Origin: Promethearchaeota archaeon
Lineage (GTDB): Archaea; Asgardarchaeota; Lokiarchaeia; Sigyniarchaeales; SOKP01
DNA length: 41,653 nt
Reading direction: 5' to 3'
Assembly (NCBI GenBank): GCA_018238625.1
Contig: JABCSY010000028.1
Location: 1-41,653, forward strand
The position numbers and the translations under genes are program-made. Within the stretch, counting starts at the first letter, position 1, and every line of letters starts with the position of its first letter. This document shows positions 1,536-22,396 of this stretch, in pieces. The notes beneath the pieces were generated by a model. It was not told the DNA's origin. It saw only the letters and a program-made list of their open reading frames with translations, and did no database searches.

Positions 1536-2477
1536 ATGGATTCTAATGTTGTAAAAAAATCTGAAATTAAATACGAAAAAGCTACAAATATTCTTTGGAA
1601 AGTGTGGTGGTTTTGTTGGTATTTACTAATTGTTCCTTCAGGTATTACGGCATTGGGTTACTTTATATTTCGATTTATAAGCAATGACTTTTACATTTCG
1701 TTAGGATTTTCTGTCCTCACATTTATTTTTTCGATACTATTTTTTTATAAATTTTATGATAAGTATCGAAATGATCCCGTATTCCTTAATCAAACAAACA
1801 ATCCTACCTCAAGGATTCATATTTTATTCTTAATAACTATCTTTTCCTTAATTGTAACCCCCATTTTCGTGCTTATTGATCCTTCAGATTACTTTTTTGA
1901 ATTATTACCTTTAATTTCTTTTTGCGTTCTCTATTTAATAGTTTTTTATTACTACTATTTCAAACCTATAGACTTCTTTAACACCTCTATAGGCGAATTT
2001 AAGCACTCAATTAACTTTTCTTTAGCATCCAAACAGCTTTACAACATTGTCGTAATCTTAAATTTTATTATTCATATTTTATTTCTCTCTTTCCTATTTA
2101 ATACAAAAGTTTCATGGTTATTCGCACTTATAACAAATTTTTCTTTTTACTTCATCACATTAGTATCTACTAAAAAAATACGCAAAATAATTAATGATTC
2201 AATCAAAGAGAATAAAATATTTTTGAAAGAATTGATTATATTTCATAAAAAATACTCAGTTTCAATTCTTAGCTTAATTTTCGTTCTGTTAATCCAAATA
2301 CCTTTTGATATTATTGGAGTTTATAGTATAAATTATGAGATACAACACACGCTTATTGAATTAATAAATGCTTTCTTTTTATCCATGATGTTCTTTCTAA
2401 TTTATTTGAAAATTAGAGTATATCTCGCTTTTTACTACAAAAAATTACTTATGAGGTTACCCAAGAATGAAATCTGA
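1536..2477 (+). CDS. Polytopic membrane protein of unknown function (about 8 TM helices)
   Basis: 313-aa ORF with paired hydrophobic segments; overlaps the next ORF by 11 nt. Confidence 0.8.
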   Translation: MDSNVVKKSEIKYEKATNILWKVWWFCWYLLIVPSGITALGYFIFRFISNDFYISLGFSVLTFIFSILFFYKFYDKYRNDPVFLNQTNNPTSRIHILFLITIFSLIVTPIFVLIDPSDYFFELLPLISFCVLYLIVFYYYYFKPIDFFNTSIGEFKHSINFSLASKQLYNIVVILNFIIHILFLSFLFNTKVSWLFALITNFSFYFITLVSTKKIRKIINDSIKENKIFLKELIIFHKKYSVSILSLIFVLLIQIPFDIIGVYSINYEIQHTLIELINAFFLSMMFFLIYLKIRVYLAFYYKKLLMRLPKNEI

Positions 2478-5400
2478 TAAAGTTGAGGATAGTCTGCCTG
2501 AAGCGTTCGGTAAATACCAGAAGTTAAATCTAATTTTGTCAATTTTAATTTTAGGGTTTCTTATTTTATTATCGTATTTGATAGAATTTCCGATACTTAT
2601 CCTATTCTCTCTACTATTTTTAATCGTCATCTCGTATTACGAGCAAAAAGCAAACTTTTGCCCAAAAAAATATAGCAAATACATTTTTTTAGTTAACTCT
2701 ACTGGGATTTTTGCGACAATTGTTTTTTGGTTTGTGCCTTTGCCATATAATATTAAATTTATAATATTGATTATAGGATTATACTTAATCTTAGAGATTT
2801 TTGCGACAAGAGGTTATTTCGTTAAAGAGAACATTTTAATTGCTCAACATGTTTTAGCTGTTTCTAGTTTTATTGTGATAATTTACTCTTTTTTCGATAT
2901 TTTTTCTTTTATTTACATTGATTTTACAACAGATCCTATTCTAATAATGTTTTCAAAATTTTTACTACATGCTTTAACGATTCTATCACTAACTTTAATC
3001 TCTTTTTATTACGTCTATGTGCGACACTTTCGAAAACATCCATGGGATAATTTTAATAGATGCATAATGATATTAGTTTTATTAATAGAATTAACATCAT
3101 ACATCGTAATTAATCTTAGAAATTATTTCTCGTTAGACTTACTATTATTTATTAACGGTTTGATTTTGTCATCAATCTTATTTCCAGGTATTTTTTTGAT
3201 ATTTACTTTCGTAAATTATTTGATTGGCGTTTTTTCATCAAGAACATCTCTTTCTTACAGTTACTACTCGTGTTGGGGATTAATGCTGACTATTGGTCTT
3301 TCGATTATGTTTACTTTTGCATTTGTTGTAAGTAATCTGACAATTGTAATTTCCATTCTATTGTTTTTCTCAATCTCTTCGTATTATCTATTGAAATTTG
3401 GGCAGAAAATCGAAAAAATAAGCGAAAGTTCAATAATTAAGTTTACTCGTATTAATTCTTATTTTATTTTTATTGAGCTATTTTTCCTACTATTTTCTGT
3501 ATTTTTTAAACTATTTTCATATTTTGTATTATATGATGCCATTATTATTTCAACATATGCGGCATTTATGGGAATAACCTTTCTAAATAACATAATTTTT
3601 AAGAAAAGATTAATCTCAGAATCGAACAGAGTTGTAATAAACGAGCTTTCTTTAATATTTACATCCGTTTTAATTTTTTATTATTCATTTATTTATTTTT
3701 TCGGTTCTTATCTCGTACTGGTTTTTCCTTTTTTAATTTCAAGTATTTCATTTTATTTACCTCTCAGATATATATTAACCAAAACAACCCATCAAACCTT
3801 TATAAAAAGCTTAATAAAACTGAACAGCATTGTATTATGTTCGTCATTGCTCCTTATTCCAACGGTATTTAGCTTGGAGTTGGTATCGATAGGATACGAT
3901 TTCAATACGTTTAATGTCGTTAATTTTACATTATTCATTTTTTATGGAATTTTAGTTTTTCTTTATAATTTTTCAAGACAACTCAATATTAGAGAAACAA
4001 GAAAAAAACTAATGGTTAAATTACAGATTATCGTTGGATTTATCGTTACAGGTACCACCATGTTCTACTATCCATATGTCTTGCTTATAGAAACTTCCTA
4101 TTCAATAATTTTTTCATTGCTCTCTGCTTCAAGTTTCTTATTTATTCCTCTTATCTTTTCTTATAAAAAAGAATGTTTTAATACCAAATTAGTTAAAAAG
4201 ATAATAATTCTGAATAGTATCCTATTTTGGATCATCATCATTTTTATACCTTCTATGATCGGGTTAGAAATAGTTAGATTAGGGATGATCGCTGATCCTA
4301 TCTTAATTACTTTATTTTCCGTAATATTATTTTTTGTTTCTTTAAAATTCTTTGATCAGATTTCGTCCTATATCGAATTAAAAGAAGGATTGATTAATGG
4401 TATTAAGATAATTCAACCAATTACTTGGTTATTCATTAGTATTCTAATTTCTTCAATCTTTTTCAATCTAAATTTAACCGTAACAATTACTTGGTTAAGA
4501 AATGTTATTTTTGCTGGCGCGCTTTTGTTATTTTTTATACTTAACACATACAATTTAGTTCTTTTAGAAGATTTAAAACAATCAGTCTTTGAAGACGAAA
4601 CAAGTAAGTTTGATTATTACAGGATTTACAAAATTTATGAATTTATTAAGAATATTATAATTTTCGGCGTAATAATTTCAGTATCTCTTATATTTTCATC
4701 AATCGTCCAAGTGTTTAATTATAACCAATTTTTTATTGATATGGATCTTCAATTATTAGGTTTTACCCTCGACATTGCCATATTTTTACTAATATTATTA
4801 CTCATCCTTAATGTAAGCGATAAACTGATAAAAATCGACTTCGAAAGAGTTAAAGTTACTTCTGAATTGATACTATGGATAATTCTAAAATCTATTATAT
4901 TGTTTACTTTAGCCTTGTATCCTATTCAATTGTCGTTATTCAGTAAAATAACACTATTAATTCTTGTCTTCGCCGTTTTAAGTCCAATTTCTCATTTTTA
5001 TTTAGAAAGAAGATTTTTACTCTTAGAAAATACTCAATCAGCGATAAGAAAAAGTATAGGGGGCTTGTTTTTCTTATCAATTATTTGTCTTTCCATTGAA
5101 ATTATTTGGAATATCTCTTCAATAATTTTAGCCCCACATTTAAATCAAGAGATGCTTAAAATTCTTGTTTTCGGGAAAATATTTCTATTTTCAAATTTTT
5201 ATCTTCTACGATATAAAGTTTTTACAGAAAGAGAATCAGGGTTTCATATATATAGCATATTTGGAATTTCGTTAGTATTACTGATTTCATACTTATTCCC
5301 TCTCTCATTAGTTTTCTTATTACCCTTTATGATATTATTATCAGAAAGAAACAGAACATCCTATTTTCGCTTGTTTTTCTATTTGATACTAAGTATTATA

Positions 5401-8400
5401 ACATTTATTGAAGCAACAGGGTTCTTGATTTCATATGAACTTCTACCTTCCCTTGAAGCATTATCGATTAGTACATCGTCTACTATATACTTAATATCTT
5501 TATTATCTGTATTTTTTACATCGATTATCTTGAATTTAGAAAGAGAAAATAACATTGAAAAATTCATACTTTATTTTTTAATATCTTTACTTTCGTTTAT
5601 TTTGTTATCACCCTATATATATCTAATATACAACACGACTACCTCATTATTCATTTTCTTGTGTTTAATGGGCGTCTTCTATTATAGGAAAGAGGAACCC
5701 CGATATAAATGGTTTATTAAACCATGTGTCCTTCTTATGATTTTTAATTTTATTAGTTTTCTATCTTTTTCATTCTTTTTTAATAATATTATATTTGCAT
5801 CCTATAATCCGATACTAAGTTTTACGCTAACTTTAAGCGTGTCTGGATTTGCGTTTGTATTTCTTTACAACGATTCGCCAAGATTGTTTCGAAAGAGATC
5901 ATTTTATATCGTTTTAGCTTTAAATATAATTTCATTTCCCGCATTTCTATATTTCTTCTTGATTTCAGTATACTCACTTCCGATTTTCGATCTAATTATA
6001 TTAATTATAAGTATTAATGTAGGAGTTGTTCTTTTTTATCTTTCAATAGCAATTTATCAATGGAAATTGTCTTGGGCTGTATGGAAAATTGGTTATAGAT
6101 CGTGGATAATCTTTCCTATTATAAATTACGCATTGATAAGCGAAGCATTTACAGGTATAGATGTATTCACAAACGCTTTAAATTTATTTGGTGTAAATTT
6201 ATATGGTTCAAATCTTTTAGCTTTTATTCTATGCGTTCTTCTATCCTTACCGTTCTGGTATACATGGATTAAGAAACATTTCACTAATGTTTTATTTATT
6301 TCATGGGGTTTATGTCTATTTTTAATCTATTGGTTTAGCCAAAATGCATTTTTTGGAAACCCAGATTTGAGCTATTTGTCATTTATTGGCATCTCAGTTA
6401 TAATACTTATGCCAATTCTAGTAAGGTTAAGATCGTGGAATATAGTATCTATCTTATGGATAATATTCTCAATAATCTTGTCAATTTTTCTATTTTCTCT
6501 ATTTGAAGCAGTAGGATTTCTAATTGAGATAAATTACCCAATAATTACAATAGTATGTGGCCTACTTTTTATTACTCTCTCGTTTTTCCCTAACTTAAAA
6601 GCTCAGAAGAATGTTATATTAATACTGGCCTACTCTATTGCATTAACAGGGATTTTCTTATTAATATTTCATCTTATGTTTTTGTTGACCTTGCATCCAT
6701 TTATTTCTACAAACATAGCGTTAATTATTATGTCCTTAAGCTTATTTTCGTCAAGACTTCTAAAATTAAAACACATTATCTTTAATCGTTTAATTTCTAC
6801 AATTTTAATAGTAAACTTCTCTTCACTAACTTACTTTACTTTTAACTTAATCCCCAATTTTGGATTGTTTTCATTATTTTTAGCGGTAACAGTCTTCGGT
6901 GGGTCGTACTTCGTATTTAACTACTATAAATTATTCTTTCCATCGAAAAAAATTATTCCACTAAGTATTCTTTCTTTTGGAATTTCATCTTCTGCGTCTT
7001 CAATTGTATTTTTGTTGTTACCCGATTCACTTTTTATGGTTGCCGCAGTATTTATTGCTATAAATTTAATTTTAATTAATTTTTCACTAGGGAATTATCG
7101 ATTTATAATGTGGTATTTAATCCCTATTCCCTTCACACTTTTTATATTACAGTTTTTATTTTATATTGAACTTTTTCAACCTCTTTTACTGTTTACTTTA
7201 GCAGGATTAATGTTATACACTCTTATCTTCCAAATCTTTATAAATCTCTTCAATAACGATATTGAACTTTCAATCGAATCAAAATCCTATAATATTATGA
7301 AATTTTTTGAGGATAAAAATCAAATTAAAGTTCTAAATCTAATATGTTTTTTATTAAATTCAGCTTACTTTTCAATTTTTCTCGCGTTTCTTAGCCCATT
7401 TAACATATTCTACCAAATTCTCGAAGTTTTAATATTGTGGTCTATTTTAACATTACTCAGTGTACGATACGCCGAGTCTTCGAAAATAGAAATTGATATC
7501 GAAAAATTTACTATATATTTGAAGAAATTTAGTTCAGTAGTAGCATTTCTATTATATCTTGAAATCTCTTTTTTTGTTTTTGGAATAGCTCTTGATTATT
7601 TAGGGTTGGGGTTGATTGAGAATGTTTTATTATCATTAAGCTGTTTATTTATCCTCACATTTTTCGATTTCTATTTTATAAAGAAGGTTAGTAAAAGGAT
7701 AATCTATCCAATTCATATTTTTGCGTATATTTTAATGTCTATCCTTTTATTTATTTTATTAAACCAATTCTTAATGATTGGTTTAGAAAGTCTCTTTTTG
7801 AACCTTGTAATTCTGTTAATTATGCAATTTTATACTGAATACGCCATCTTTACGTATTTAAATCAATTAGGTCGATATGACGCAAGTAAATTAAACGAAT
7901 CCATGATTCAGATTAGAAATGTCCTAATAAATATGATTATATTTACTATAGGCTTCTACACATCTTCCTTAATGACTTCTTTTCTAATAAGTTCAAATGA
8001 GATTTTTATAGGATTTCCAGCGTTATTTTTCTTTTTAATGATTCTTTCTGTTATTATGTTTGCTATAAACCTTTTAATGAAGTTTAAGTTCAGAAATTTT
8101 ATTATATGGGGGTTCTTTTTAATGTTTCAAGTTTGCTTTACAGCTTTCTACAGTTTATCAGTTTTACTCTTTACGGATTTCAATATATTTAATTCTATGC
8201 TTTTAATTTTAATTAATACGCTCTTCGCTTTTTATTCTGTTTTCTCAATCAAAAGAATTTTAAAAGAAAAAGCGAATGCTAAAACCATTCAAAATTATTA
8301 TTCTATTCTAATGGTATTATCGTACTTAGAAACATCCATTTTATTTTACGGATTGTTTAATCTTTTGTTTGGAGTAATTGAAAGTTTCTTAGCGTCACAA

Positions 8401-10083
8401 ATCGTCTTATTTTTTATTAGCATAGTAGAGATTAATGTTGTAAAAAGAATTAAAAGTAAGTACATGTTTTTAGTTCATACAATTTGCTATTTCAACATTT
8501 CATGGTCTGTATTATCGCTAATATTATTTTTATCCCCCTCAAATTTGGCTTTACAAAGTTTTGCCATCTTGGTTTTTGCTTTAATGCAATTCTATACAAA
8601 TTATTCTTATTACAACACTATGCGTAAATTTAACTTGGATAATGAAGAATCGTTATTAAAGTGGAAAACACATCGAAAATGTTTCATAGGGGGGGTAATT
8701 TATATAGTATTATCCAATTACATTTTTCAGACTCTATATTTAGCCAACATTGAGCTTCAATTAATTTTATTTTTATTAAGCATATTAATTCACATCTTAA
8801 TGATTTTTGATAGGTTTGTCCTTAAATTTCTTGGTAAATATTCAGTCTTTTTAATGACAGCTTCGTGGGTATTTATTTTTGGATTTTCAATTAATTATTT
8901 TTTGGGTTGGATTCCTCAATACTCAATTTCTATCGTTCCGATTATTATTATTATCCTCTTATTAGAGTTAGTTTATGGTTATGGGTTAAACCTATTCGAT
9001 TTTTGGGGTTTAATTAAAGAAAACAAATTAAAACTTAGAAACTTTCTTATAATTGTTTCGTATATCAATTTCTGCTCTTGGCCACTGTATTATTTAACAT
9101 TAGATATATTAAATATTACCACGATGATTTTAATCGTATTTGGAATTTTACTACTTTTAATGTTACTTGATAATGATAACAATTTTAATTCTATTAATCA
9201 AAAAACTAGAAAACAGGTTAGTCATTTCAGCCTGATCGGTTTTGGCGTATTCTCCTCATTTGATGTGTATTTTGCATTAGCTATAATGGATCCAACAAAA
9301 CTTTTATTAAATATTTCAACTTCCCTATTAGTTTTTATGGTATTTGTAGGCTTCTTAGTCAAACCCTTTAAAAAACGGAGACTCCTCTCTTTTGCTTATT
9401 GGGGGTTAATGGTAACTTTAATATTTTTAATTTTTTACGCCTTTTACTCATCTGGTTGGAGCTGGTCACTTTTAATTCTAGGTATTTTATTATACCCATT
9501 TATTTTCATGTTAGAGGAGTTAAAAGAATTCTTCGATAAAATAGTTGAAAATTTGAGCGCTTTATATCAAATTATTAAGAACGCCTTTAATTCTTTAGTT
9601 CAGGAAGTAATTAAATTCTTGAGGGTTAATTTTAAAGTTATCCGCATTATTTTGTGTATAATATTAGGATTAGTTATGGGAATTCTTTTTTCAGATTTAG
9701 TATGGCATTATTTAAACCCATTCCATTCAATTTTATTAGCTTTAGCAATTTTTGGGATATCTTATGGAACTATTCCAGGAGTGAAATCTACGGATATTGA
9801 CGAGATTTTTAGAGAAAAAATGAAGAGATTTATTACAATATGGATAAGCATAACGGCTTTTATTTCGGCTATTATATTACCCTATATAGTATCTATTGTT
9901 CTTATATTTTTCCTTGTAATATTATCAATTTTAGGGCTTGGAGCTATTCTATTAATATTTATATACCGATTAGAAGAAGCAGAGAGAGTTTCGATAAAAT
10001 GGAGGTTTTACACCTTAATATTTTTCTTTATTTTACTTGGTATTGAAATTTTATTAGGAGCAGCTTTATATCTTGGCGGTTAA
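2467..10083 (+). CDS. Giant (2538 aa) multi-pass membrane protein with internal ~125-130-aa repeats
   Basis: 7.6-kb uninterrupted ORF, hydrophobic throughout. Repeated motifs: K.(L/I)I.LNSI..IP..LE..G and YLE.S..G..IE..L.S..MQFYT.Y. Confidence 0.85.
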   Translation: MKSDKVEDSLPEAFGKYQKLNLILSILILGFLILLSYLIEFPILILFSLLFLIVISYYEQKANFCPKKYSKYIFLVNSTGIFATIVFWFVPLPYNIKFIILIIGLYLILEIFATRGYFVKENILIAQHVLAVSSFIVIIYSFFDIFSFIYIDFTTDPILIMFSKFLLHALTILSLTLISFYYVYVRHFRKHPWDNFNRCIMILVLLIELTSYIVINLRNYFSLDLLLFINGLILSSILFPGIFLIFTFVNYLIGVFSSRTSLSYSYYSCWGLMLTIGLSIMFTFAFVVSNLTIVISILLFFSISSYYLLKFGQKIEKISESSIIKFTRINSYFIFIELFFLLFSVFFKLFSYFVLYDAIIISTYAAFMGITFLNNIIFKKRLISESNRVVINELSLIFTSVLIFYYSFIYFFGSYLVLVFPFLISSISFYLPLRYILTKTTHQTFIKSLIKLNSIVLCSSLLLIPTVFSLELVSIGYDFNTFNVVNFTLFIFYGILVFLYNFSRQLNIRETRKKLMVKLQIIVGFIVTGTTMFYYPYVLLIETSYSIIFSLLSASSFLFIPLIFSYKKECFNTKLVKKIIILNSILFWIIIIFIPSMIGLEIVRLGMIADPILITLFSVILFFVSLKFFDQISSYIELKEGLINGIKIIQPITWLFISILISSIFFNLNLTVTITWLRNVIFAGALLLFFILNTYNLVLLEDLKQSVFEDETSKFDYYRIYKIYEFIKNIIIFGVIISVSLIFSSIVQVFNYNQFFIDMDLQLLGFTLDIAIFLLILLLILNVSDKLIKIDFERVKVTSELILWIILKSIILFTLALYPIQLSLFSKITLLILVFAVLSPISHFYLERRFLLLENTQSAIRKSIGGLFFLSIICLSIEIIWNISSIILAPHLNQEMLKILVFGKIFLFSNFYLLRYKVFTERESGFHIYSIFGISLVLLISYLFPLSLVFLLPFMILLSERNRTSYFRLFFYLILSIITFIEATGFLISYELLPSLEALSISTSSTIYLISLLSVFFTSIILNLERENNIEKFILYFLISLLSFILLSPYIYLIYNTTTSLFIFLCLMGVFYYRKEEPRYKWFIKPCVLLMIFNFISFLSFSFFFNNIIFASYNPILSFTLTLSVSGFAFVFLYNDSPRLFRKRSFYIVLALNIISFPAFLYFFLISVYSLPIFDLIILIISINVGVVLFYLSIAIYQWKLSWAVWKIGYRSWIIFPIINYALISEAFTGIDVFTNALNLFGVNLYGSNLLAFILCVLLSLPFWYTWIKKHFTNVLFISWGLCLFLIYWFSQNAFFGNPDLSYLSFIGISVIILMPILVRLRSWNIVSILWIIFSIILSIFLFSLFEAVGFLIEINYPIITIVCGLLFITLSFFPNLKAQKNVILILAYSIALTGIFLLIFHLMFLLTLHPFISTNIALIIMSLSLFSSRLLKLKHIIFNRLISTILIVNFSSLTYFTFNLIPNFGLFSLFLAVTVFGGSYFVFNYYKLFFPSKKIIPLSILSFGISSSASSIVFLLLPDSLFMVAAVFIAINLILINFSLGNYRFIMWYLIPIPFTLFILQFLFYIELFQPLLLFTLAGLMLYTLIFQIFINLFNNDIELSIESKSYNIMKFFEDKNQIKVLNLICFLLNSAYFSIFLAFLSPFNIFYQILEVLILWSILTLLSVRYAESSKIEIDIEKFTIYLKKFSSVVAFLLYLEISFFVFGIALDYLGLGLIENVLLSLSCLFILTFFDFYFIKKVSKRIIYPIHIFAYILMSILLFILLNQFLMIGLESLFLNLVILLIMQFYTEYAIFTYLNQLGRYDASKLNESMIQIRNVLINMIIFTIGFYTSSLMTSFLISSNEIFIGFPALFFFLMILSVIMFAINLLMKFKFRNFIIWGFFLMFQVCFTAFYSLSVLLFTDFNIFNSMLLILINTLFAFYSVFSIKRILKEKANAKTIQNYYSILMVLSYLETSILFYGLFNLLFGVIESFLASQIVLFFISIVEINVVKRIKSKYMFLVHTICYFNISWSVLSLILFLSPSNLALQSFAILVFALMQFYTNYSYYNTMRKFNLDNEESLLKWKTHRKCFIGGVIYIVLSNYIFQTLYLANIELQLILFLLSILIHILMIFDRFVLKFLGKYSVFLMTASWVFIFGFSINYFLGWIPQYSISIVPIIIIILLLELVYGYGLNLFDFWGLIKENKLKLRNFLIIVSYINFCSWPLYYLTLDILNITTMILIVFGILLLLMLLDNDNNFNSINQKTRKQVSHFSLIGFGVFSSFDVYFALAIMDPTKLLLNISTSLLVFMVFVGFLVKPFKKRRLLSFAYWGLMVTLIFLIFYAFYSSGWSWSLLILGILLYPFIFMLEELKEFFDKIVENLSALYQIIKNAFNSLVQEVIKFLRVNFKVIRIILCIILGLVMGILFSDLVWHYLNPFHSILLALAIFGISYGTIPGVKSTDIDEIFREKMKRFITIWISITAFISAIILPYIVSIVLIFFLVILSILGLGAILLIFIYRLEEAERVSIKWRFYTLIFFFILLGIEILLGAALYLGG

Positions 10084-11574: not shown

Positions 11575-11811
11575 GTGAAAAAACCACGATGTGAAAAATG
11601 CGGACGGGAAGTTCACCCCGCCAAATCTGCTATACAAAGTTTTGATACTATTTTCTCAAAGATTCCTTCGTATTGTCCTAACTGTGGAGCGGAACTTTCA
11701 GATACAAAGCAAAAACAAGTGGATAATTATACAGATTATCTTTCTATTCTTAAATGTATTCCCATAATAGGGTTCATCATTCTTATTATAATTCTAATAA
11801 TGATATATTAA
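11575..11811 (+). CDS. Zinc-ribbon protein with a C-terminal membrane anchor
   Basis: CEKC...CPNC pairs; terminal hydrophobic helix IPIIGFIILIIILIMIY; GTG start. Confidence 0.7.
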   Translation: MKKPRCEKCGREVHPAKSAIQSFDTIFSKIPSYCPNCGAELSDTKQKQVDNYTDYLSILKCIPIIGFIILIIILIMIY

Positions 11812-11918
11812 ATATTGTAAGTTAGTACAGGTAATATAAATTTAGACATTCCATTACTAATTGATAATCCATCCACTAAATTGATAAATGGAAGTGGACA
11901 AAACAAAAGTTTTGTTAT

Positions 11919-11930
11919 AAAAAGGAAAAA
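11919..11930 (-). terminator. Oligo-U terminator of the candidate ncRNA
   Basis: UUUUUCCUUUUU starts 3 nt after the 3' strand of the closing helix. Confidence 0.55.
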
Positions 11931-11933
11931 GGT

Positions 11934-12161
11934 TCAAGAAGTTGCAATGAATACCCGAAGGCTCATTGCTAGTATTTCATTCTATATTTTCATATAAAAT
12001 GTCTCAATGAGCAACTTATTTAATCGTTAGTCCGAAAACCAATGATTCAAATCTATATCCGAAGACATAGTCTTTCCGTTAAGGAAAGAAAGTTTTACCA
12101 ATTTGTCATACCGGAGGTATTCCAATTGGTTATATCATTGAGAGTTAATACTACTTCTCGA
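11934..12161 (-). ncRNA. Structured non-coding RNA of unknown class (~228 nt, nested multi-branch fold)
   Basis: Hand-folded: terminal 9-bp helix UCGAGAAGU/ACUUCUUGA, nested helices, three UUCG tetraloops and one GAAA tetraloop, and G-U pairs valid only on the minus strand. Upstream TATA-like element and downstream U-tracts. Confidence 0.8.
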
Positions 12162-12184
12162 TATTCACACCATAAGGTATGAAT

Positions 12185-12200
12185 AATATATATTTTTAAC
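12185..12200 (-). promoter_or_regulatory. BRE/TATA-like promoter for the candidate ncRNA
   Basis: Minus strand GTTAAAAATATATATT; archaeal spacing predicts a start near 12161-12165, the first paired base of the RNA. Confidence 0.5.
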
Positions 12201-12220
12201 TGATCATATTTAAATGGGAC

Positions 12221-12246
12221 TATTAAGGGATTATATTAAGGGATTA
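12221..12246. repeat. Tandem 13-bp direct repeat TATTAAGGGATTA x2
   Basis: Exact duplication at 12221-12233 and 12234-12246, with a degenerate copy (..AATGGGACTA) just before. Confidence 0.8.
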
Positions 12247-12295
12247 TTAAATATTTATGTCGATAGAGTTTGGTTATAATTTCTTTAAGTCGGAT

Positions 12296-14704
12296 TCATT
12301 CGATATAGCATGATAAATCCTTCTGATTGGATTTCCTCATGATATCCGATTTTAATAATTCTTCGAGTTCAGGGAATTTAAAAGGAAAAATATTCTCAAA
12401 AGCTCTTTTTAGTAATTCTATATACTTTTTTTTGTCGTACTGATGTTTTTTTTCGTCGTAAAGATCTGAAAGAATCACCTTCTTTTCGGGAAAAGCTGGG
12501 TCGGCATCAGCATTGAGTATAATATAGCGAACATTTTTACCGGGAGTCACTACCACACCTGATCTTTCTAGTTGTCTCGCAGCAACAGCCTGGTACGAGT
12601 TTACTTTGTACTGTGAAGGTTTTCTGGAAACCCTTTGGCGAATCGTAAGTTCTTCTCGCAAAACTTCACCCATCTCTATCTTGTCCACATATCGATAGAG
12701 CATCTTCTTTACTTTTGGGATTCTTCTCATAAATTCTTCGACGGTTTTTGCGCCTTGAAATACATCGATAAACGCGTACTGAGCGTCTTTAACGATTTTT
12801 GGCGCGTCTCTGCGCCGAACTTCAATTCCTCTTACTTTTATCTCTCCATCGCTTTTAATCCCCCAATAGTGACTTAGCGCCGGAATGTCTGGTTCTGCAC
12901 GAGAAGGAAGAAAAACGATAAAATTGTACTTTCCGTCCCAGCTCATTGGAATACCCACTTGTTCAGTTATTTCTTCAGCAATTTTTTTAGTTTCTGCTTC
13001 GAACTCCTCGGGAGATCTACTTTTTGTATCTTTGAGCCAAATTGAATCCACAATTCCGTGAATAACTTTGCAACCATGTTCTTCTGCTATCTCCGCAGAG
13101 CGCATAAGGAATTCACGAGCAAAAGCGCAAACCGTTTGATGAGCTTCGATCTTTCCGAAGCGAGCATTTTTAAACCCTAAATATCCGAAGCTTACTACGA
13201 GTACCCATTTTAGAGCAATATCGGTGAATTTGTAACGAAGGTTCCCAGTTTTACGGACATACGCTTTGTACTTTAATCTTTTTGATAAAGGCAGGCTTAT
13301 TGATTTCGATATGATTCCTTGTCTTTTTGAACAGATATGAAAGTCCAATCCTGGAACTTTTACACCCGTACCGTCGTCTTTACAACACTTACAATTAATG
13401 GTTTCCGAAGAAATATTAAAGTTTGCCATTAAAGAAGGATACATAGAAGAAAAGTCTAGTTCTACCACTTGTTCAAAAACGCCAATGATGGGTTCGAATA
13501 TATGGCCTCCACGGTCGCTTCTAATTAGGTCCATTCCAGTGTTGAATCCTTCCGGATTTTTCTTGAATGGAGGTATTAAATGGTCAAGCTTATAAGCGTT
13601 ATAAAATTGAATCGACTGGAGCGCCCCCCCGATTGTTATGCGACTTAATCTTTGGAGCGAAATTCGCGATATACGGGCGACTTCAATAACGCCTGGAATA
13701 TTTCCTTCCGTGAAATGGAGACTGGCGTATGTTGTTGTGTCCAAATGAAATCTGCCAGATAAATAGACTTGAGTCTTTGAACGCCGTCTTATTATACCAT
13801 ACGACATATAATGATCTGAGCCACCAGAAAGCTCGAAAAGACAGTTCACCAATGGTTTTTTATCCCGAGAAAGGTAAAGATCTTTTGTTACTCGATTCTC
13901 TGAAGCCCTAGCAACTAGATACGGGAGGAGAAATTCGTCCCCATTTTGGGTAAGTATTATATCAGGATCGAGACGTTCGATTACTTTGCTTATGGTCTTC
14001 AAGGTTTCCGCTTCGTTTGCTTTAGCGATCAATATTTTTCGTTTTATGTATCCATCTGCTCGTGGAACATTGCCCTCGTCGTTTTCAACAATATTGATTT
14101 CAGCATGAGAAATGGGATCGTTATAATATGGTCTTATCCCTTGGTGCTGAATTTTTACATCTAACCAAACAGCTTTTAGTGGAGGCAAATCGTAGAATAA
14201 CTTTTCGTTGTCATCTTGTAAATCTAGAGAAACAAGGCGTAAAATATTACTTCTCTTGTCTTTGCCCTTTTCAATTTTAACTTTGAAACGACAGAAAGAC
14301 ATAGGGAATATGTCATTGACATAAAAATACATCTGAGTAATAGGAAGATCCGTATTATGCAAGATAAAAAGTCCTATTCTGTCAATCTCTTTAATTGTTT
14401 TCTTAAATACCGAGGGTTTCGTTACAGTGACGCCAAGAACTTTCGATTTTTCGTGATCTTCGAGTTTTGCATATTTTTCACAGATTCGCACCTCTTTTAC
14501 ATTTAGATTTTGAGTAAGGATATATTTCAATCGCTTTAAGTCGTTACCGACTTCATTTCTGGGCACGGCAAAAAATTCAGGACAGAATTCTTGGTATACT
14601 TTTATTACCTTCTGCTCTTTTGAGGTTTTTACCCAAAGGATAACCCCTTCGCTAAAAGTAGATACATCTAAAAGCCAACCGTCAAAAACATTCTGTGAGT
14701 CCAA
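12296..14704 (-). CDS. polB2: Archaeal family B DNA polymerase, PolB2 group
   Basis: Motif A LDFSSMYPS, motif B KWVLVVSFGYLG and motif C HGIVDS (PolB2-type replacement of YGDTDS). KVRGIEVRRRD, a CKCC..HIC cluster and eroded exonuclease motifs. TTG start 3 nt after the upstream stop. Confidence 0.92.
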   Translation of the reverse strand: MDSQNVFDGWLLDVSTFSEGVILWVKTSKEQKVIKVYQEFCPEFFAVPRNEVGNDLKRLKYILTQNLNVKEVRICEKYAKLEDHEKSKVLGVTVTKPSVFKKTIKEIDRIGLFILHNTDLPITQMYFYVNDIFPMSFCRFKVKIEKGKDKRSNILRLVSLDLQDDNEKLFYDLPPLKAVWLDVKIQHQGIRPYYNDPISHAEINIVENDEGNVPRADGYIKRKILIAKANEAETLKTISKVIERLDPDIILTQNGDEFLLPYLVARASENRVTKDLYLSRDKKPLVNCLFELSGGSDHYMSYGIIRRRSKTQVYLSGRFHLDTTTYASLHFTEGNIPGVIEVARISRISLQRLSRITIGGALQSIQFYNAYKLDHLIPPFKKNPEGFNTGMDLIRSDRGGHIFEPIIGVFEQVVELDFSSMYPSLMANFNISSETINCKCCKDDGTGVKVPGLDFHICSKRQGIISKSISLPLSKRLKYKAYVRKTGNLRYKFTDIALKWVLVVSFGYLGFKNARFGKIEAHQTVCAFAREFLMRSAEIAEEHGCKVIHGIVDSIWLKDTKSRSPEEFEAETKKIAEEITEQVGIPMSWDGKYNFIVFLPSRAEPDIPALSHYWGIKSDGEIKVRGIEVRRRDAPKIVKDAQYAFIDVFQGAKTVEEFMRRIPKVKKMLYRYVDKIEMGEVLREELTIRQRVSRKPSQYKVNSYQAVAARQLERSGVVVTPGKNVRYIILNADADPAFPEKKVILSDLYDEKKHQYDKKKYIELLKRAFENIFPFKFPELEELLKSDIMRKSNQKDLSCYIE

Positions 14705-14707
14705 CTT

Positions 14708-14983
14708 CTACTCTTTTCCCTTAATTATTTTCTCTATTTCGATAATCTTTTTTTCCAACAACCCAATTTTCTTTTCTTGCTCAATCGCAAACGACATGAA
14801 AAGAATTTCTGAAAGCATAGGGCGAGCACTTAAACTGCCAGCATCAGCATGAATTCTCGCAAAGTTCATTAATTTATCAAATATTTTTTGATCTTCTGGC
14901 CTAAGCGCTCTTTTATAGTCCTTCCAGCTTTCGATCTCGTGTTCAAGCGCAGGACGAAAGCTTGGCACTGTTCTACCACACAT
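14708..14983 (-). CDS. Small helical PolB2-associated protein (arCOG07300-like)
   Basis: GRTVPSFR..W..YKRALRPED..F..L...AR.H..A signature; immediately upstream of polB2, as in the conserved archaeal neighbourhood. Confidence 0.8.
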   Translation of the reverse strand: MCGRTVPSFRPALEHEIESWKDYKRALRPEDQKIFDKLMNFARIHADAGSLSARPMLSEILFMSFAIEQEKKIGLLEKKIIEIEKIIKGKE

Positions 14984-15020
14984 ATTTACTTCAATTTTTT
15001 TTTAGTTTTTCAAGCAAACC

Positions 15021-17443: not shown

Positions 17444-18223
17444 TTAAAACCAACAATCTAAAGTCATGTTTTTCGTAGTATTTGCCAAATTTCTTTTAGG
17501 AATGCGCGGTTTCCACTTTAAAAGGCGGTTTTCTGGCAAAAAAGGATGCTGGACTAAAACATATTCTGTATATCGCTCGTCTTCGTTTATCAATGCTAAT
17601 ACACTTCCGAAGTGGGAGAGAATTTTGCCGCCATTAGGTCTATAGAGAGAATATTCGTTTAGGGGAGCAGTTAGGACGATGAGCGGTCTTGTTTTAGAGA
17701 GAATCGTTTTAATCCCGTTAATAGCTCTCAGTAAATCCTCAAACATCTGCTTTTCGTAACTCTGAAACAATGTAGTAATACCAGAAATTAAAACAACTTT
17801 GACGTGTTCAAGCTTAGAGAGCCTATTTTCTAAAAGCTCTACCATTTGATCCCAAGTAAACGCGCGGGCGATAAGAATATTCCCTAAAACTTTCTGAGGC
17901 GATAAATTTTGGGAAACTGCAAACTTGCTTACGTTATATGGGTTAAAGCGGTTATTTGCGTCAATGAAAGCAACTTTTATTTCTTCTCCTAAACCTCCAT
18001 TATTAAAAGATTTTTGAGCGATAACCGCGGTGGTCAATAGAATATTCGCAAGTTTTTTTTTATCGCCATAAAGTAGATAAACTAAGTTTTTACGAAAACC
18101 ACCGCCTCCCAATAACTCGTCTAGCGTTGAATCCCCGCTCGAAACTAAAGGAATTCTCTTGTTTTTTCTATAAAAATTAAACCCCGAATTAAACGACATT
18201 ACATAAACTGATGAATCCATCAA
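17444..18223 (-). CDS. Inactivated RadA/RadB-like RecA-fold protein of the PolB2 module
   Basis: SSG..LDELLGGG, FIDANNRFNPY and NILIARAFTWDQM motifs. Walker A is degenerate (YGDKKKLAN) and Walker B lacks Asp (VVLISGI). Confidence 0.85.
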   Translation of the reverse strand: MMDSSVYVMSFNSGFNFYRKNKRIPLVSSGDSTLDELLGGGGFRKNLVYLLYGDKKKLANILLTTAVIAQKSFNNGGLGEEIKVAFIDANNRFNPYNVSKFAVSQNLSPQKVLGNILIARAFTWDQMVELLENRLSKLEHVKVVLISGITTLFQSYEKQMFEDLLRAINGIKTILSKTRPLIVLTAPLNEYSLYRPNGGKILSHFGSVLALINEDERYTEYVLVQHPFLPENRLLKWKPRIPKRNLANTTKNMTLDCWF

Positions 18224-18579: not shown

Positions 18580-20292
18580 ATGACAAGCCCATATACAGAT
18601 CGTTTTTGGCGTAAAAATTGGGACGAGGGATTAGCGGACTTGGATCCTATCCTATGGGAAACTTCTTTCATAGATGCGGTAAGGAATATTTTTGAGAATT
18701 TTCCGGACAAAATGGCTTTATCTTTTCAAGGTTTAGAAATTACCTTCGGTCAAATAGATAAATCTTCTAACCAATTTGCTCACATGTTAATTGATCAAGG
18801 ATTTAAGAAAGGAGATGTCGTAGGAATTAATCTTCCAAATACTCCGGAGTATGTTATAGCATTTCTTGGGACTTTAAAGGCTGGTTGTATTGTTTCTGGC
18901 GTAAGTCCACTCATGTCAGATGTTCAAATGCATTATCAAATAAATGATTTAGGAGCAGGCAAAAAAAATGTTGCTTTAGTTACTCTCGACGCGATTTTTG
19001 AACATCGATTGAAAAACATAACATCAAAATTACCACAATTAAAGCTTGTAATAACTACTAGCGTAATAGGGTCATTTCCAAAGGAACAACAAGCTAAAAT
19101 TAGGGCTGTTAAAGAGATTCCTTTTGGAAAAGTAACTCCCTTAGAAGGAAAAACTGTTCTCGATTTTCACGATGATATTTTAGCTAAATACCCAACTAAA
19201 CTACCTACAGTTGATGTAACTCCAGATGATATTGCATTTATTCAATACACTGGAGGAACCACAGGACCTCCAAAAGGTGCAATGCTAACTCATAGAAGCG
19301 CAGTTTCAGACCTTATAATTGTTCGAACATGGCTCGGTTGGGAACAGGGGGCAAGGATTGCGCTTTCAGGGTTCCCTTTTTTCCATATAGCGGGTCTATT
19401 TTTCTGCAACTCCTGTCTATTTCTTGGTTGGGGTCAAGTCCTTATAGCGGATCCCAGAGATACCTTAACAATTTGCAATGAAATGAAAAAATATAATCCT
19501 ACGGCACTGGTAAATGTTCCATCATTATTTCAAATTCTTATAAACACCAAAAAATTTAAGAGATTAGATCATTCTAATTTAGATGTTTGTATTTCTGCTG
19601 CGGCCCCATTTCCAGTTGAATCTCAACAAAAATTAGAAGGTATCGTTGGAGCGGGTAAACTATTGGAAGCTTATGGAATGACTGAATGTTCTCCACTCTC
19701 AACAATGAATCCTTACAAAGGAAAACGAAAGTTAGGCTCTATAGGCCTACCTTTATTAAACGTTGAATTAAAACTTGTTGACCCCGAAAGTGGTGAAGAA
19801 GTTCCATTAGGAGAACCAGGGGAGATTTGCGTAAGAGGTCCTATGGTTATGAAAGGTTATTATAACAAACCTGAGGAAACTAAGAACGCAATTGACTCTG
19901 ATGGATTTATGCATACTGGAGATGTAGCAATAATGAGTGAGGACGGATATTTGAGAATTGTAGATCGAACTAAGGATATGATAATTGTCGGCGGTTTCAA
20001 AGTATTTTCTTCTAAAGTAGAGGAAACATTGATTAAACACCCTGCAATTGGAATGGTTGCCCTAATCGGAATACCAAATCCTGATAGACCCGGCTCAGAA
20101 ATTGTTAAGGCAATTCTGCAACTAGATCCTAATTACGAGTATGATGGAAACGAAGAAGCATTGAAAGAGGATATTACAGCTTTTGCTAAAGAACATTGTG
20201 CTCCATATGAAGTCCCCAAAAGACTTGAAATAGCTAAAGAATTACCACTCACAGTAGTAGGTAAAATTGATAAGAAAGCTTTAAGGAAATAA
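18580..20292 (+). CDS. fadD: Long-chain acyl-CoA synthetase (FadD-like), paralog 1
   Basis: YTGGTTGPPKG, FPFFHIAG, YGMTE, GEICVRGP, HTGD, DRTKDMI and LPLTVVGKIDKK motifs. Confidence 0.92.
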   Translation: MTSPYTDRFWRKNWDEGLADLDPILWETSFIDAVRNIFENFPDKMALSFQGLEITFGQIDKSSNQFAHMLIDQGFKKGDVVGINLPNTPEYVIAFLGTLKAGCIVSGVSPLMSDVQMHYQINDLGAGKKNVALVTLDAIFEHRLKNITSKLPQLKLVITTSVIGSFPKEQQAKIRAVKEIPFGKVTPLEGKTVLDFHDDILAKYPTKLPTVDVTPDDIAFIQYTGGTTGPPKGAMLTHRSAVSDLIIVRTWLGWEQGARIALSGFPFFHIAGLFFCNSCLFLGWGQVLIADPRDTLTICNEMKKYNPTALVNVPSLFQILINTKKFKRLDHSNLDVCISAAAPFPVESQQKLEGIVGAGKLLEAYGMTECSPLSTMNPYKGKRKLGSIGLPLLNVELKLVDPESGEEVPLGEPGEICVRGPMVMKGYYNKPEETKNAIDSDGFMHTGDVAIMSEDGYLRIVDRTKDMIIVGGFKVFSSKVEETLIKHPAIGMVALIGIPNPDRPGSEIVKAILQLDPNYEYDGNEEALKEDITAFAKEHCAPYEVPKRLEIAKELPLTVVGKIDKKALRK

Positions 20293-20439
20293 TAAAATCT
20301 ATTTTTTTTCTTATTTTTATTCATCATCAGTTACGACTTTATAAACTACTTATTTTATAATAAAAAGAGTTCTAAGAAGAGAAGAGAACGAATTTGTAAG
20401 AAATTAATAAAATTGCGAAATGAAATATCTAAAAAATTA

Positions 20440-20462
20440 AACTTTATAATAAAATGAATCAA
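20440..20462 (+). promoter_or_regulatory. Promoter block of fadD paralog 2
   Basis: AACTTTATAATAAAATGAATCAA aligns without gaps to the other two. Confidence 0.65.
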
Positions 20463-20534
20463 ATATAATTATAATTATAATAATTTTTTCGAAATATAAA
20501 AATCAAATAATATGAAATAGATGAAAAGAAAAAT

Positions 20535-22241
20535 ATGTCGTATAAAGATAAATTCTGGAAAAAATCCTGGGATGATTATGTAAAAGATTTAGATCCAAAT
20601 GAATTTAATACAACTTATCCCGAAGCAATTCGAAGAACTATGGAAAAGTTTCCAGAGAAGATGGCTTTTGATTATTTAGGAATAACTTTAACCTATAGAG
20701 ATTTAGACGAGACTTCAAACCAATTCGCCAATATGTTAATTGAAAACGGTTTTAAAAAAGGCGATGTAGTCGGTATAAATTTACCAAATACACCTGAATA
20801 TTTAGTGGGCGTCATTGGTACTTTGAAGGTAGGTTGTATTGTTTCGGGTGTTTCACCTCTTCTTTCAGACATTCAAATGCAATATCAATTGAATGATTTA
20901 GGTACAGGAGGGAATAAAGTAGCATTATTAACTTTAGATGCTATATTTGCTGGTAGATTAGTTAAAATAGTTTCAAAATTACCACAATTAAAATTAGTAA
21001 TAACTACTAGCGTAGGAGGCTACCTGCCGAAAATAAAACAAGTATTGGGTAAATTAATTGGTAAGATTCCTAAGGGAAAAGTTACTCCCTTAGAAGGAAT
21101 AACAGTAATTGATTTCCATAAAGATCTCTTGCCTACTTATTCAAAAGAATTACCAACAGTAAAAATAGCCGCTGATGATTTAGCATTTATTCAATATACG
21201 GGTGGAACTACAGGACCACCAAAAGGAGCAATGTTAACCCATAAGAATATCGTTTCTGACATAGTTATATACCAGAAATGGCTTAATTGGGAACCAGGGG
21301 AAGGCGTAGCTCTTTCAGGGTTTCCATTTTTCCATATCGCAGGAACTTTTACTACCCTTAATGTAGTCTACCTGGGTTGGAGTCAGATTTTGATACCAAA
21401 CCCACGTGATTCAGATCACATTATAAAAGAATTGGCTAAATACAAACCAACGGTTTTAGCAAATGTGCCTTCTTTATATCAGATTTTGATGAAAAACCCA
21501 AAATTTAAAGAGTTGGACCATTCGCAATTAAAGTATTGCGTTTCTGCGGCAGCACCGTTTCCAAAAGAATCTCAAAAAGAATTCGAAACAATAGTAGGGA
21601 AAGGTAAATTAATAGAAGCTTATGGGATGACTGAAACATCTCCACTCTCAGCAAGTAATCCATCCAATGGAGTTAAAAAATTAGGAAGCATAGGTCTTCC
21701 TCTAAACAATACGGAAATAAAATTAGTTGATCCAAACACAGGGAAGGAAGTACCTGTAGGAGAGCCTGGAGAGATTTGCGTAAAAGGACCAATGGTAATG
21801 CAAGGATATTTCAATAAACCTGAGGAAACTAAGAACGCAATTGACTCTGATGGATTTATGCATACTGGAGATGTAGGCGTAATGGATGAAGATGGGTATA
21901 TGAAAATCGTTGATAGAACTAAAGATATGATAATTGTCGGCGGTTTCAAAGTGTTTTCAGCCAAATTAGAAGACACCCTAACTAAACATCTTGCTATAGG
22001 AATGGTTGCCACTGTAGGAGTAGATAACCCTGAAAGACCAGGTTCTGAAATCGTTAAAGCGTTTATACAATTAGATCCTGAATATGACTACGACGGAAAT
22101 GAGGACGCTTTAAAGAAAAATATTACAGCATTTGCCAAAGAAAACTGTTCACCTTACGAAGTTCCTAAAATAATTGAAATTGTAAAAGAACTACCACTCA
22201 CGACAGTTGGTAAAGTCGATAAGAAATCACTTCGAAAATAA
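20535..22241 (+). CDS. fadD: Long-chain acyl-CoA synthetase (FadD-like), paralog 2
   Basis: Same adenylate-forming motifs; colinear with paralog 1. Confidence 0.92.
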   Translation: MSYKDKFWKKSWDDYVKDLDPNEFNTTYPEAIRRTMEKFPEKMAFDYLGITLTYRDLDETSNQFANMLIENGFKKGDVVGINLPNTPEYLVGVIGTLKVGCIVSGVSPLLSDIQMQYQLNDLGTGGNKVALLTLDAIFAGRLVKIVSKLPQLKLVITTSVGGYLPKIKQVLGKLIGKIPKGKVTPLEGITVIDFHKDLLPTYSKELPTVKIAADDLAFIQYTGGTTGPPKGAMLTHKNIVSDIVIYQKWLNWEPGEGVALSGFPFFHIAGTFTTLNVVYLGWSQILIPNPRDSDHIIKELAKYKPTVLANVPSLYQILMKNPKFKELDHSQLKYCVSAAAPFPKESQKEFETIVGKGKLIEAYGMTETSPLSASNPSNGVKKLGSIGLPLNNTEIKLVDPNTGKEVPVGEPGEICVKGPMVMQGYFNKPEETKNAIDSDGFMHTGDVGVMDEDGYMKIVDRTKDMIIVGGFKVFSAKLEDTLTKHLAIGMVATVGVDNPERPGSEIVKAFIQLDPEYDYDGNEDALKKNITAFAKENCSPYEVPKIIEIVKELPLTTVGKVDKKSLRK

Positions 22242-22317
22242 TATTTAATATTTTTATTTTTATTTTTTTTCTATAATACATTTTTAAAAGGAATCTCAAT
22301 AAGATTTAGAAAGTTAA

Positions 22318-22340
22318 AACTTTATATTTAAAAGAATCAA
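22318..22340 (+). promoter_or_regulatory. Promoter block of fadD paralog 3
   Basis: AACTTTATATTTAAAAGAATCAA; 79 nt upstream of the ATG, as in paralog 1. Confidence 0.65.
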
Positions 22341-22396
22341 TACTATTTAGTAACAATTTTTTAATGAAAAAAAGTAATAATTTGAGTGAAATTAAA

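Follow-up and report, generated by a model that had tools for sequence, protein, structure and literature searches.

What kind of gene, if any, lies between positions 11934 and 12161 on the minus strand of JABCSY010000028.1, a 41,653-nt contig from a Promethearchaeota archaeon (assembly GCA_018238625.1; the whole stretch is called the window here)? An initial examination of the letters alone, hereafter the sequence-only reading, had noticed that almost every base of this strand can pair and had proposed a large structured non-coding RNA (ncRNA). In our analysis it is nearly certain that a real, new ncRNA gene is present. We infer a gene of about 258 nt at 11926..12183 on the minus strand, consisting of a 5’-hairpin P0, a multi-junction fold of helices P1 to P9 and a 3’ tail ending in the first of two U tracts; the 5’-end was placed from the promoter geometry and the ends of RNA contigs, the 3’-end from the U tract. 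The explanation that accounts best for the data overall, to which we assign a probability of roughly 0.45, is an independently transcribed, stable and compact ncRNA of a new Asgard family that would work as a ribonucleoprotein (RNP) scaffold. To our knowledge, few large, intricately folded ncRNAs lack an assigned function, and almost all of those known come from bacteria. Asgard archaea are the closest known prokaryotic relatives of eukaryotes.

Fold and extent of the RNA gene

Folding of the minus strand of 11934-12161 yielded a minimum free energy (MFE) of -74.5 kcal/mol, compared to -40.75 +/- 4.18 for 200 dinucleotide shuffles (z = -8.07), none of which folded as well. Since the plus strand reached only -51.7 (z = -3.97), the folding signal is strand-specific; this comparison of both strands had been proposed as a check together with the sequence-only reading, and its outcome favors the RNA. 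The full transcript from 12183 to 11926 folds to -85.2 kcal/mol (z = -8.35), and the covariance model R1, which has 255 positions and 74 pairs and was built from nine copies, matches 11930-12183 at 275.7 bits. All helices initially listed were found in the sequence at the positions given for them, almost all of them within the MFE fold, and the three UUCG loops, the GAAA loop and the U tracts following P1 were recovered as well. The helix AACUU/AAGUU that was said to close a four-way junction (P5, 12094-12090 with 12017-12013) exists in the sequence and is compatible with the MFE fold but lies outside it. Covariation was read by eye for this helix, which becomes UGCUU/AAGCA, AAUCG/CGAUU or AAUUC/GAAUU in relatives.

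The fold had thus been recognized correctly, but not the full extent of the gene, as the 8-bp hairpin P0 (12164..12183, minus strand), immediately 5’ of P1, was overlooked. The former prediction of a start at P1 did not hold: the TATA box at 12214-12207 predicts a start at P0, since the RNA begins 22 nt upstream of P1 with this hairpin. P0 is supported by the fold, by covariation and by a snap-back RNA contig turning at this position, and it is kept in all homologues; its pair 7-38 is CG in 13 of 21 sequences and UA in 7.

The following helices are all given on the minus strand. The 5’ strand of P1, UCGAGAAGU (12153..12161), pairs in the MFE fold with the 3’ strand ACUUCUUGA (11934..11942), and its core GAGAAG/CUUCUC is never changed on both sides among 21 sequences. 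P2 is formed in the MFE fold by AGUAUU (12147..12152) and its partner at 11971-11976. P3 (12142-12135 with 12010-12003) encloses a domain (12003..12142) supported by MFE and covariation, which contains, besides P5, the hairpins P4 (12130-12097), P6 (12089-12071), P7 (12070-12053) and P7b (12052-12018). P8 (11978..12001) is a hairpin with the GAAA loop, and a GNRA-type loop is retained here in most relatives; P9 (11944..11969) ends in a UUCG loop. In this allele P1 comprises 9 bp and P9 10 bp.

The internal loop of P4 was compared by eye with the kink-turn, a three-base bulge followed by tandem sheared G-A pairs that is bound by L7Ae in archaeal RNPs. GA occurs on both strands of this loop in genus g1, to which the window’s genome belongs, and in most of genus g22, but arranged non-canonically, and the group of genome G006 lacks it. 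Covarying loop-loop complementarity was sought by eye in the RNA family and none was found. No open reading frame (ORF) is conserved across 21 sequences, the longest ORFs comprising 27-61 aa in varying strand and frame.

Promoter, transcripts and conservation of the fold

A dedicated set of promoter elements precedes the gene on the minus strand. The TATA box TTTAAATA (12207..12214) starts at -31, and in 14 of 15 loci of different genomic contexts a TTTAAATA box starts exactly at this distance from the first base of P0; in the fifteenth, the TATA box is at -31 relative to an extra first hairpin. Upstream of it lies the proximal element CCCTTAATA (12221..12242), with the consensus CCNTTAAYA, found at -46 in 11 of the 15 loci. 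Relatives have a single copy, at -46; a 13-nt tandem duplication, present in this genome only among the 15 loci, produces a second copy of CCCTTAATA, so that the element recurs at -59. Two further boxes, here called CGAC boxes, lie farther upstream: in this genome box 1, CGACTTAAA (12284..12292), is at -109 and box 2, CGACATAAA (12254..12262), at -79. Most relatives have them at -96 and -66, respectively, and box 2 follows box 1 by 30 nt throughout. Both exact CGACNNAAA boxes at about -96 and -66, 30 nt apart, occur in 7 of the 15 loci. Displaced CGACNNAAA pairs that keep the 30-nt spacing were seen in the window’s genome (-109/-79) and in locus L032 (-120/-90), and the remaining six loci each have one exact box. 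The 13-nt duplication shifts both CGAC boxes 13 nt farther from the TATA box, which might alter regulation.

Paired CGAC boxes occur once in the 4.29-Mb genome, at this gene, and the same is true of the combination of CCNTTAAYA with a TATA box. The promoter boxes were not found upstream of the RNase P RNA and signal recognition particle (SRP) RNA genes of the same genome. Two U5 tracts (11919..11930, minus strand) follow P1 and the bases ACC and are a likely archaeal terminator; in each of the 15 loci examined the RNA is followed by a similar U-rich tail. Homology among the loci always begins at the first CGAC box and stops after the terminator. Together with copies in other genomes that lie away from the family B DNA polymerase (PolB) gene adjoining the RNA in the window, the possession of its own promoter and terminator agrees with the initial view of a stand-alone gene. 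As a side observation, PolB-linked copies of genus g22 (L034 of genome G107 at 1501-1545, and also L032) open with two successive P0-type hairpins in place of one, indicating that the 5’ hairpin itself was duplicated.

The fold is conserved through compensatory changes. When 21 copies of the one-module type described below were aligned by fitting them to R1, 92.2% of the cells paired, compared to 35-48% after sliding the 3’ partners by 1-3 columns, and the covariation score was 0.400 compared to 0.055-0.093. Changes on both sides affected 40 of the 74 pairs, whereas shuffles gave 24.5 +/- 2.4 and none of 500 reached 40. Moreover, a MAFFT alignment of 20 copies based on sequence only, analysed with RNAalifold, contained 49 pairs, 22 of them with compensatory changes, located in P0, P4, P7, P7b, P8 and the tip of P9. 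Covariation among homologues, which had been suggested as a further check, therefore supports most of the hairpins.

Copies of relatives are present in RNA libraries. Contigs of four metatranscriptome runs from four studies align on 11947-12185 with 80-99% likeness; they stem from long-form relatives, whose module 1 they cover, and their loose ends continue into module 2 (see below). The longest contig, of 720 nt, starts about 9 nt inside P0 and runs into module 2; if its source has the length of the copy in genome G002, it would end at the long-range P1. The others comprise 608, 430 and 319 nt. Contig ends without loose ends fall at 12159-12174 in all four runs, a weak hint of an RNA end, and a 72-nt contig (run X15, record 2) folds back on itself exactly at P0. 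In our reading this contig resembles a snap-back cDNA primed at the 5’-end of the RNA. Summed word depth amounted to about 1,900-2,750 in run X16. No RNA contig aligned on 11600-11946 or 12186-12600, which is not evidence of silence. The DNA runs considered, X1-X6, contain a 301-nt stretch of the locus whole; they are flagged as possible sources of the assembly and are thus not independent.

Modules, distribution and relation to known RNAs

Among the genomes that have the RNA, those closest to the window’s show, after the first ~220 nt, a further ~480 structured, ORF-less bases that separate this part from the second (3’) half of the final hairpin, ACUUCUUGA and the U tract. This long form of about 735 nt consists of three tandem modules, and one representative (L002:1520-2250) folds to -210.6 kcal/mol (z = -12, 20 shuffles). 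In every long form R1 aligns over its full length with module 3 (41-62 bits); the middle module is unmatched, yet by eye its beginning shows a hairpin resembling P0 and a 5’ strand resembling that of P1/P2. RNAalifold applied to eight long forms returned 236 pairs, 28 of them with compensatory change. In both the RNAalifold and MFE structures module 1 contributes the 5’ strands of P1 and P9 and module 3 their 3’ partners, an arrangement that places modules 2 and 3 inside P9.

In pairwise alignments with G002, the window RNA shows no difference from module 1 as far as the P9 loop, and beyond this point none from module 3. Concordantly, the 5’ half of its P9 is of the module-1 type and the 3’ half of the module-3 type, and its P1 3’ strand has the same sequence as the 3’ strand of module 3 in relatives. 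The motif CCUUCGGG (11954..11961, minus strand), which in relatives occurs in P9 of both module 1 and module 3, marks the crossover zone; compared to these relatives ~480 nt are missing. The window copy is, on the evidence of these alignments, a one-module recombinant of the three-module form. A search of the genome for the missing ~480 nt recovered nothing (best E = 0.038). Module 1 was matched above 250 bits in 19 other loci, each of which has module 3 some 500 nt downstream; at least seven of these loci duplicate records already counted. One-module architecture also occurs naturally, in genomes G006, G132 and G127 and in many genomes of genus g22. Other arrangements are two complete tandem genes with a separate promoter each (G107) and a 347-nt variant from genus g22 that keeps P0-P3, P8 and P9 around a different core. 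The sequence-only reading was right about the stand-alone gene, but its derivation from a ~735-nt three-module RNA and its accessory nature had gone unrecognized.

As far as found, the RNA family is limited to three genera of one Asgard family of archaea. R1 detected it in 47 of the 135 genomes of this family: 12 of 41 in g1 (the window’s genome excluded), 33 of 54 in g22, 1 of 6 in g15 and none of 33 in ten other genera. No match was obtained in 19 genomes of three other families of the same order or in 125 genomes of 26 other families of the same phylum; as the searches outside the family used strict filters and sampled genomes, these results mean ‘not found’ and not ‘absent’. With blastn, 8 of the 24 other genomes searched within the genus had the RNA, as opposed to none of 16 from three other families. 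A pattern representing the 5’ signature retrieved 25 records among 185,579 species genomes, all of them archaeal metagenome-assembled genomes, and 28 metagenome contigs, of which R1 confirmed 25 of 25 and 25 of 28, respectively. The titles of the 25 genome records name Promethearchaeota (14), Promethearchaeia (4), ‘Hodarchaeota’ (2), ‘Hermodarchaeota’ (2) and ‘uncultured archaeon’ (3). Hence 22 of the 25 bear Asgard names and 3 are labeled only as uncultured, which fits the probable Asgard origin assigned to the DNA before its source was disclosed.

Three metagenome contigs (L084, L086 and L109) display the 5’ signature but no R1 match at E <= 0.001 and may be chance hits or more distant variants. 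Genome G013 has two long-form copies on contigs C179 and C46, and G086 (genus g22, 79% complete; contigs C86 and C35) combines a g1-like long form (278.5 bits) with a g22-type copy; in either case this may reflect a duplication or a mixed bin. A mobile or viral origin was considered and rejected. The 5’ signature has no match among viral contigs and blastn none among phages and plasmids, the window’s own genome has one copy, and inspection of the cassette borders by eye revealed no terminal repeats or target duplications.

The RNA gene is accessory, with gain and loss. In the window it lies 113 nt downstream of the stop codon of the PolB gene (12296..14704, minus strand; PF00136 at 1.3e-26, PF03104 at 1.8e-13, and NCBIfam), which is its neighbor upstream and lies outside the RNA gene. 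High-scoring copies lie between PolB and convergent genes, and PolB was found in 19 of 30 loci tested. In genome G016, PolB is 97% identical and the DNA is 94% identical down to window position 12309, but the RNA gene is lacking: a convergent gene for a 207-aa protein follows about 30 nt after the PolB stop codon, and R1 finds nothing there. Genome G007 (PolB 85% identical) has PolB, the 207-aa gene and a 184-aa gene, and no RNA. Its loss in close relatives implies that the RNA is dispensable. Being in addition limited to three genera of one family, it is unlikely to be a core cellular machine.

None of the 4227 models of Rfam 15 matched the window at the gathering threshold. At E <= 10 within 11700-12400 there were three chance-level matches, none on the RNA; one of them, a weak match to CRISPR-DR54 (E = 0.76), falls on promoter box 1. 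Seven homologous loci including long forms had no match at E <= 1, and ten further loci including the 347-nt variant had none at E <= 0.1. A description of this kind of structured ncRNA in Asgard archaea did not turn up in the portions of the literature consulted. With neither an Rfam match, on the window or on homologous loci, nor such a description, we regard the RNA as a new class, as the initial failure to name one had suggested. Rfam, ARAGORN and searches of the genome likewise agree with the former statement that hallmarks of tRNA, RNase P RNA, SRP RNA and riboswitches are missing. ARAGORN finds no tRNA or tmRNA gene in the window. The genome encodes its archaeal RNase P RNA (RF00373) at C127:14764-15086, with a score of 115.1 bits that exceeds the cut-off, and its sole match to archaeal SRP RNA (RF01857) is at C176:962-1274 (E = 3.4e-11, full length); neither model matches our locus. 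The SRP RNA match (L020) reaches 54 bits, compared to a gathering score of 96.5, and this large shortfall indicates a divergent SRP RNA in this lineage that standard annotation would miss. Our RNA resembles both in being a stable, structured RNA of similar size (about 300 nt) with its own promoter, but differs in being dispensable, and both known RNAs are found elsewhere in the same genome.

Other classes were rejected on structural or contextual grounds. A group II intron was suggested by GGUGUG just before P1, which resembles the 5’ consensus pentamer of these introns; this motif is the 3’ arm of P0 and covaries with the 5’ arm, and models of group II introns (RF00029, D1-D4) detected no domain V or other part in short or long forms. 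A riboswitch or other cis-regulatory leader does not agree with the convergent orientation of the downstream gene in the window and in loci L002, L044 and L047, nor with the U tracts at which the RNA ends. Omega RNA and HEARO guide scaffolds are likewise structured RNAs of 200-300 nt with patchy distribution, but our RNA is single-copy per genome, there is no Rfam HEARO match, and Pfam searches at 12 loci revealed no adjacent gene for TnpB, IscB or another nuclease.

The closest likeness in type is to OLE, ROOL, GOLLD and the raiA motif, which are large, almost fully paired, multi-junction RNAs from stand-alone genes, lineage-restricted, patchy and abundant in RNA libraries, and whose discovery by comparative analysis preceded any function. 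There is no homology in sequence or structure, as Rfam contains models of these families and none of them matches; the new RNA is archaeal whereas they are bacterial or phage-borne. With 258 nt, or 735 nt for the long form, it is smaller, and its modules are tandem paralogues. Y RNA, the partner of Ro60, offers another parallel, as its ends pair in a sequence-conserved stem, its interior varies and its 3’ tail is U-rich. In RNPs of this type the conserved terminal stem is the protein-binding site. However, the new RNA is much larger and matches no Y RNA model of Rfam. No TROVE-domain gene was found among the neighbors in the loci scanned; no genome-wide search for PF05731 was made.

Possible roles and genomic neighborhood

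The proposed scaffold would have two parts. P0, P1, P2 and P9 form a terminal platform of invariant sequence, and the P3-enclosed domain with its inner arms would be a variable and expandable body that comprises ~100 nt here, is larger in the 347-nt variant and is multiplied in the three-module form. None of the six core pairs of P1 changed on both sides in 21 sequences, four never varying and two only between GC and GU, while other helices covary in the same sequences. Invariance of the platform in spite of a varying interior suggests that it is read sequence-specifically, most simply by a protein, and a protein whose gene lies elsewhere may recognize the platform specifically. This particular mechanism, deduced from patterns of sequence conservation, is tentative, and we would put it below even odds.

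Several observations weigh against the RNP scaffold or against parts of its support. The RNA contigs derive from long-form relatives and reach down to position 11947, leaving the junction of this allele and its P1 3’ strand uncovered; being unstranded, they say nothing on the transcribed strand. The R1-fitted alignment slips by one base in P3 between subgroups that share the core CAAUG/CAUUG, so that a count of 8 of 8 compensatory pairs in P3 is inflated and true exchanges, such as G-C to A-U in genomes G093 and G089 by eye, are fewer. P1 and P2 lack covariation, and their pairing is backed by energy and conservation alone. Furthermore, the sequences form about five clades and hence represent few independent events. 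Pfam searches of the neighbors in 12 loci disclosed no shared partner protein gene, and a role in regulation or conflict would agree with the loss of the RNA in close relatives no less than a scaffold.

One such role, which we regard as unlikely though worth keeping in mind, is that of a trans-acting regulatory RNA, such as a protein sponge or sensor, made on demand under a dedicated transcription factor binding the two CGAC boxes, which would act in a stress or conflict (antiviral) response. The dedicated promoter with fixed spacing, unique in the genome, speaks for it, as do the accessory distribution with losses in near relatives, the varying number of copies and modules (one module, two tandem genes in G107, three fused) and the high depth in one RNA library. 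Yet the RNA offers few unpaired conserved bases for pairing with targets, it was not found in the viral, phage and plasmid collections, and no defence, integrase or transposase genes adjoin it in the loci examined. Its placement 113 nt past the PolB stop codon on the same strand, a position kept in 19 of 30 loci tested, would also suit a cis-acting element in the 3’-UTR of the PolB mRNA. This idea is scarcely credible, as the RNA has its own conserved promoter, the PolB genes of G016 and G007 have no RNA, and loci L040-L050 contradict it outright, lying beside unrelated genes with no PolB within 1.5 kb.

The modular organization invites explanations in which the RNA acts by itself. Bacterial ornate RNAs have been described to form homo-oligomers (PMC12286853), and single modules could in principle form a defined oligomer of RNA only, of which the three-module form would be the covalent version closed by the long-range P1. 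Pairing of the module-1 P1 and P9 5’ strands with module-3 3’ strands means that closing strands can be exchanged between modules; hardly any base is unpaired, and most relatives have a GNRA-type loop in P8. We nevertheless hold such an assembly to be quite improbable, because no conserved self-complementary loop was seen and the likeness to the bacterial RNAs is by analogy only, their Rfam models giving no match. A ribozyme, self-cleaving or otherwise catalytic, would fit a large, intricately folded and well-conserved RNA without a partner gene, but is more doubtful still: no Rfam ribozyme family matches, the junctions are nearly devoid of conserved unpaired nucleotides, the interior is replaceable and the 720-nt RNA contig crosses modules unbroken. 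Formulated more broadly, an Asgard-specific self-organizing or catalytic RNA whose ~255-nt module self-associates by exchange of closing strands, and was fixed repeatedly as tandem genes or as the ~735-nt RNA, is a long shot to which we give somewhat more room; if true, it would be the first ornate RNA-only assembly, or a new ribozyme, from archaea. Whatever the family does, the copy of this genome might be a decaying remnant, put out of function by the loss of 480 nt and by the 13-nt duplication in its promoter. Module 3 is present in every one of the 19 other loci with strong module-1 matches (with the repeated records noted above), the duplicated CCCTTAATA that displaces the CGAC boxes by 13 nt is unique to this genome, and a relative with a 97% identical PolB has lost the gene altogether. 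On the other hand, the deletion restores exactly the one-module architecture that is natural in G006, G132, G127 and many g22 genomes, P1 and P9 are intact with 9 and 10 bp, and the R1 score of 275.7 bits is among the highest; decay is therefore improbable in our view.

The RNP scaffold thus stays the preferred reading, and the locus lends itself to experiments: its promoter is defined and has boxes that probably bind factors, the transcript ends are clear, versions with one, two and three modules and knock-outs in near-identical genomes exist in nature, and copies of relatives are abundant in sediment RNA. These features make the role of the RNA directly testable.

Apart from PolB, the neighborhood of the RNA varies. 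The 347-nt variant and the copies in genomes G141, G139 and G051 adjoin unrelated genes, coding for FabK-like, DUF1326, radical SAM, thioredoxin-reductase-like, methyltransferase, GNAT, gelsolin, zinc ribbon, NosD-like and histidine kinase proteins. The gelsolin-repeat protein (PF00626, 2.1e-11) is encoded at 2350-2946 on the plus strand of locus L043 from genome G100, beside the 347-nt variant; gelsolin is a eukaryote-type cytoskeletal domain and is expected in Asgard archaea. The 184-aa neighbor, which also adjoins PolB in the RNA-less G007, has no Pfam or NCBIfam match.

Elsewhere in the window, two giant ORFs on the plus strand at 2467-10083 and 30189-35057 (2538 and 1622 aa) have no Pfam match at E <= 1e-4; the former has a GC content of about 26% with negative GC and AT skew. 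The cumulative GC skew has its minimum at about 14000-15000, near PolB and a RadA/Rad51-like gene (17444-18223), which may only reflect the composition of the giant ORF. Three consecutive paralogous genes for AMP-binding, acyl-CoA synthetase-like proteins of 570, 568 and 581 aa occupy 18580-24109 on the plus strand.

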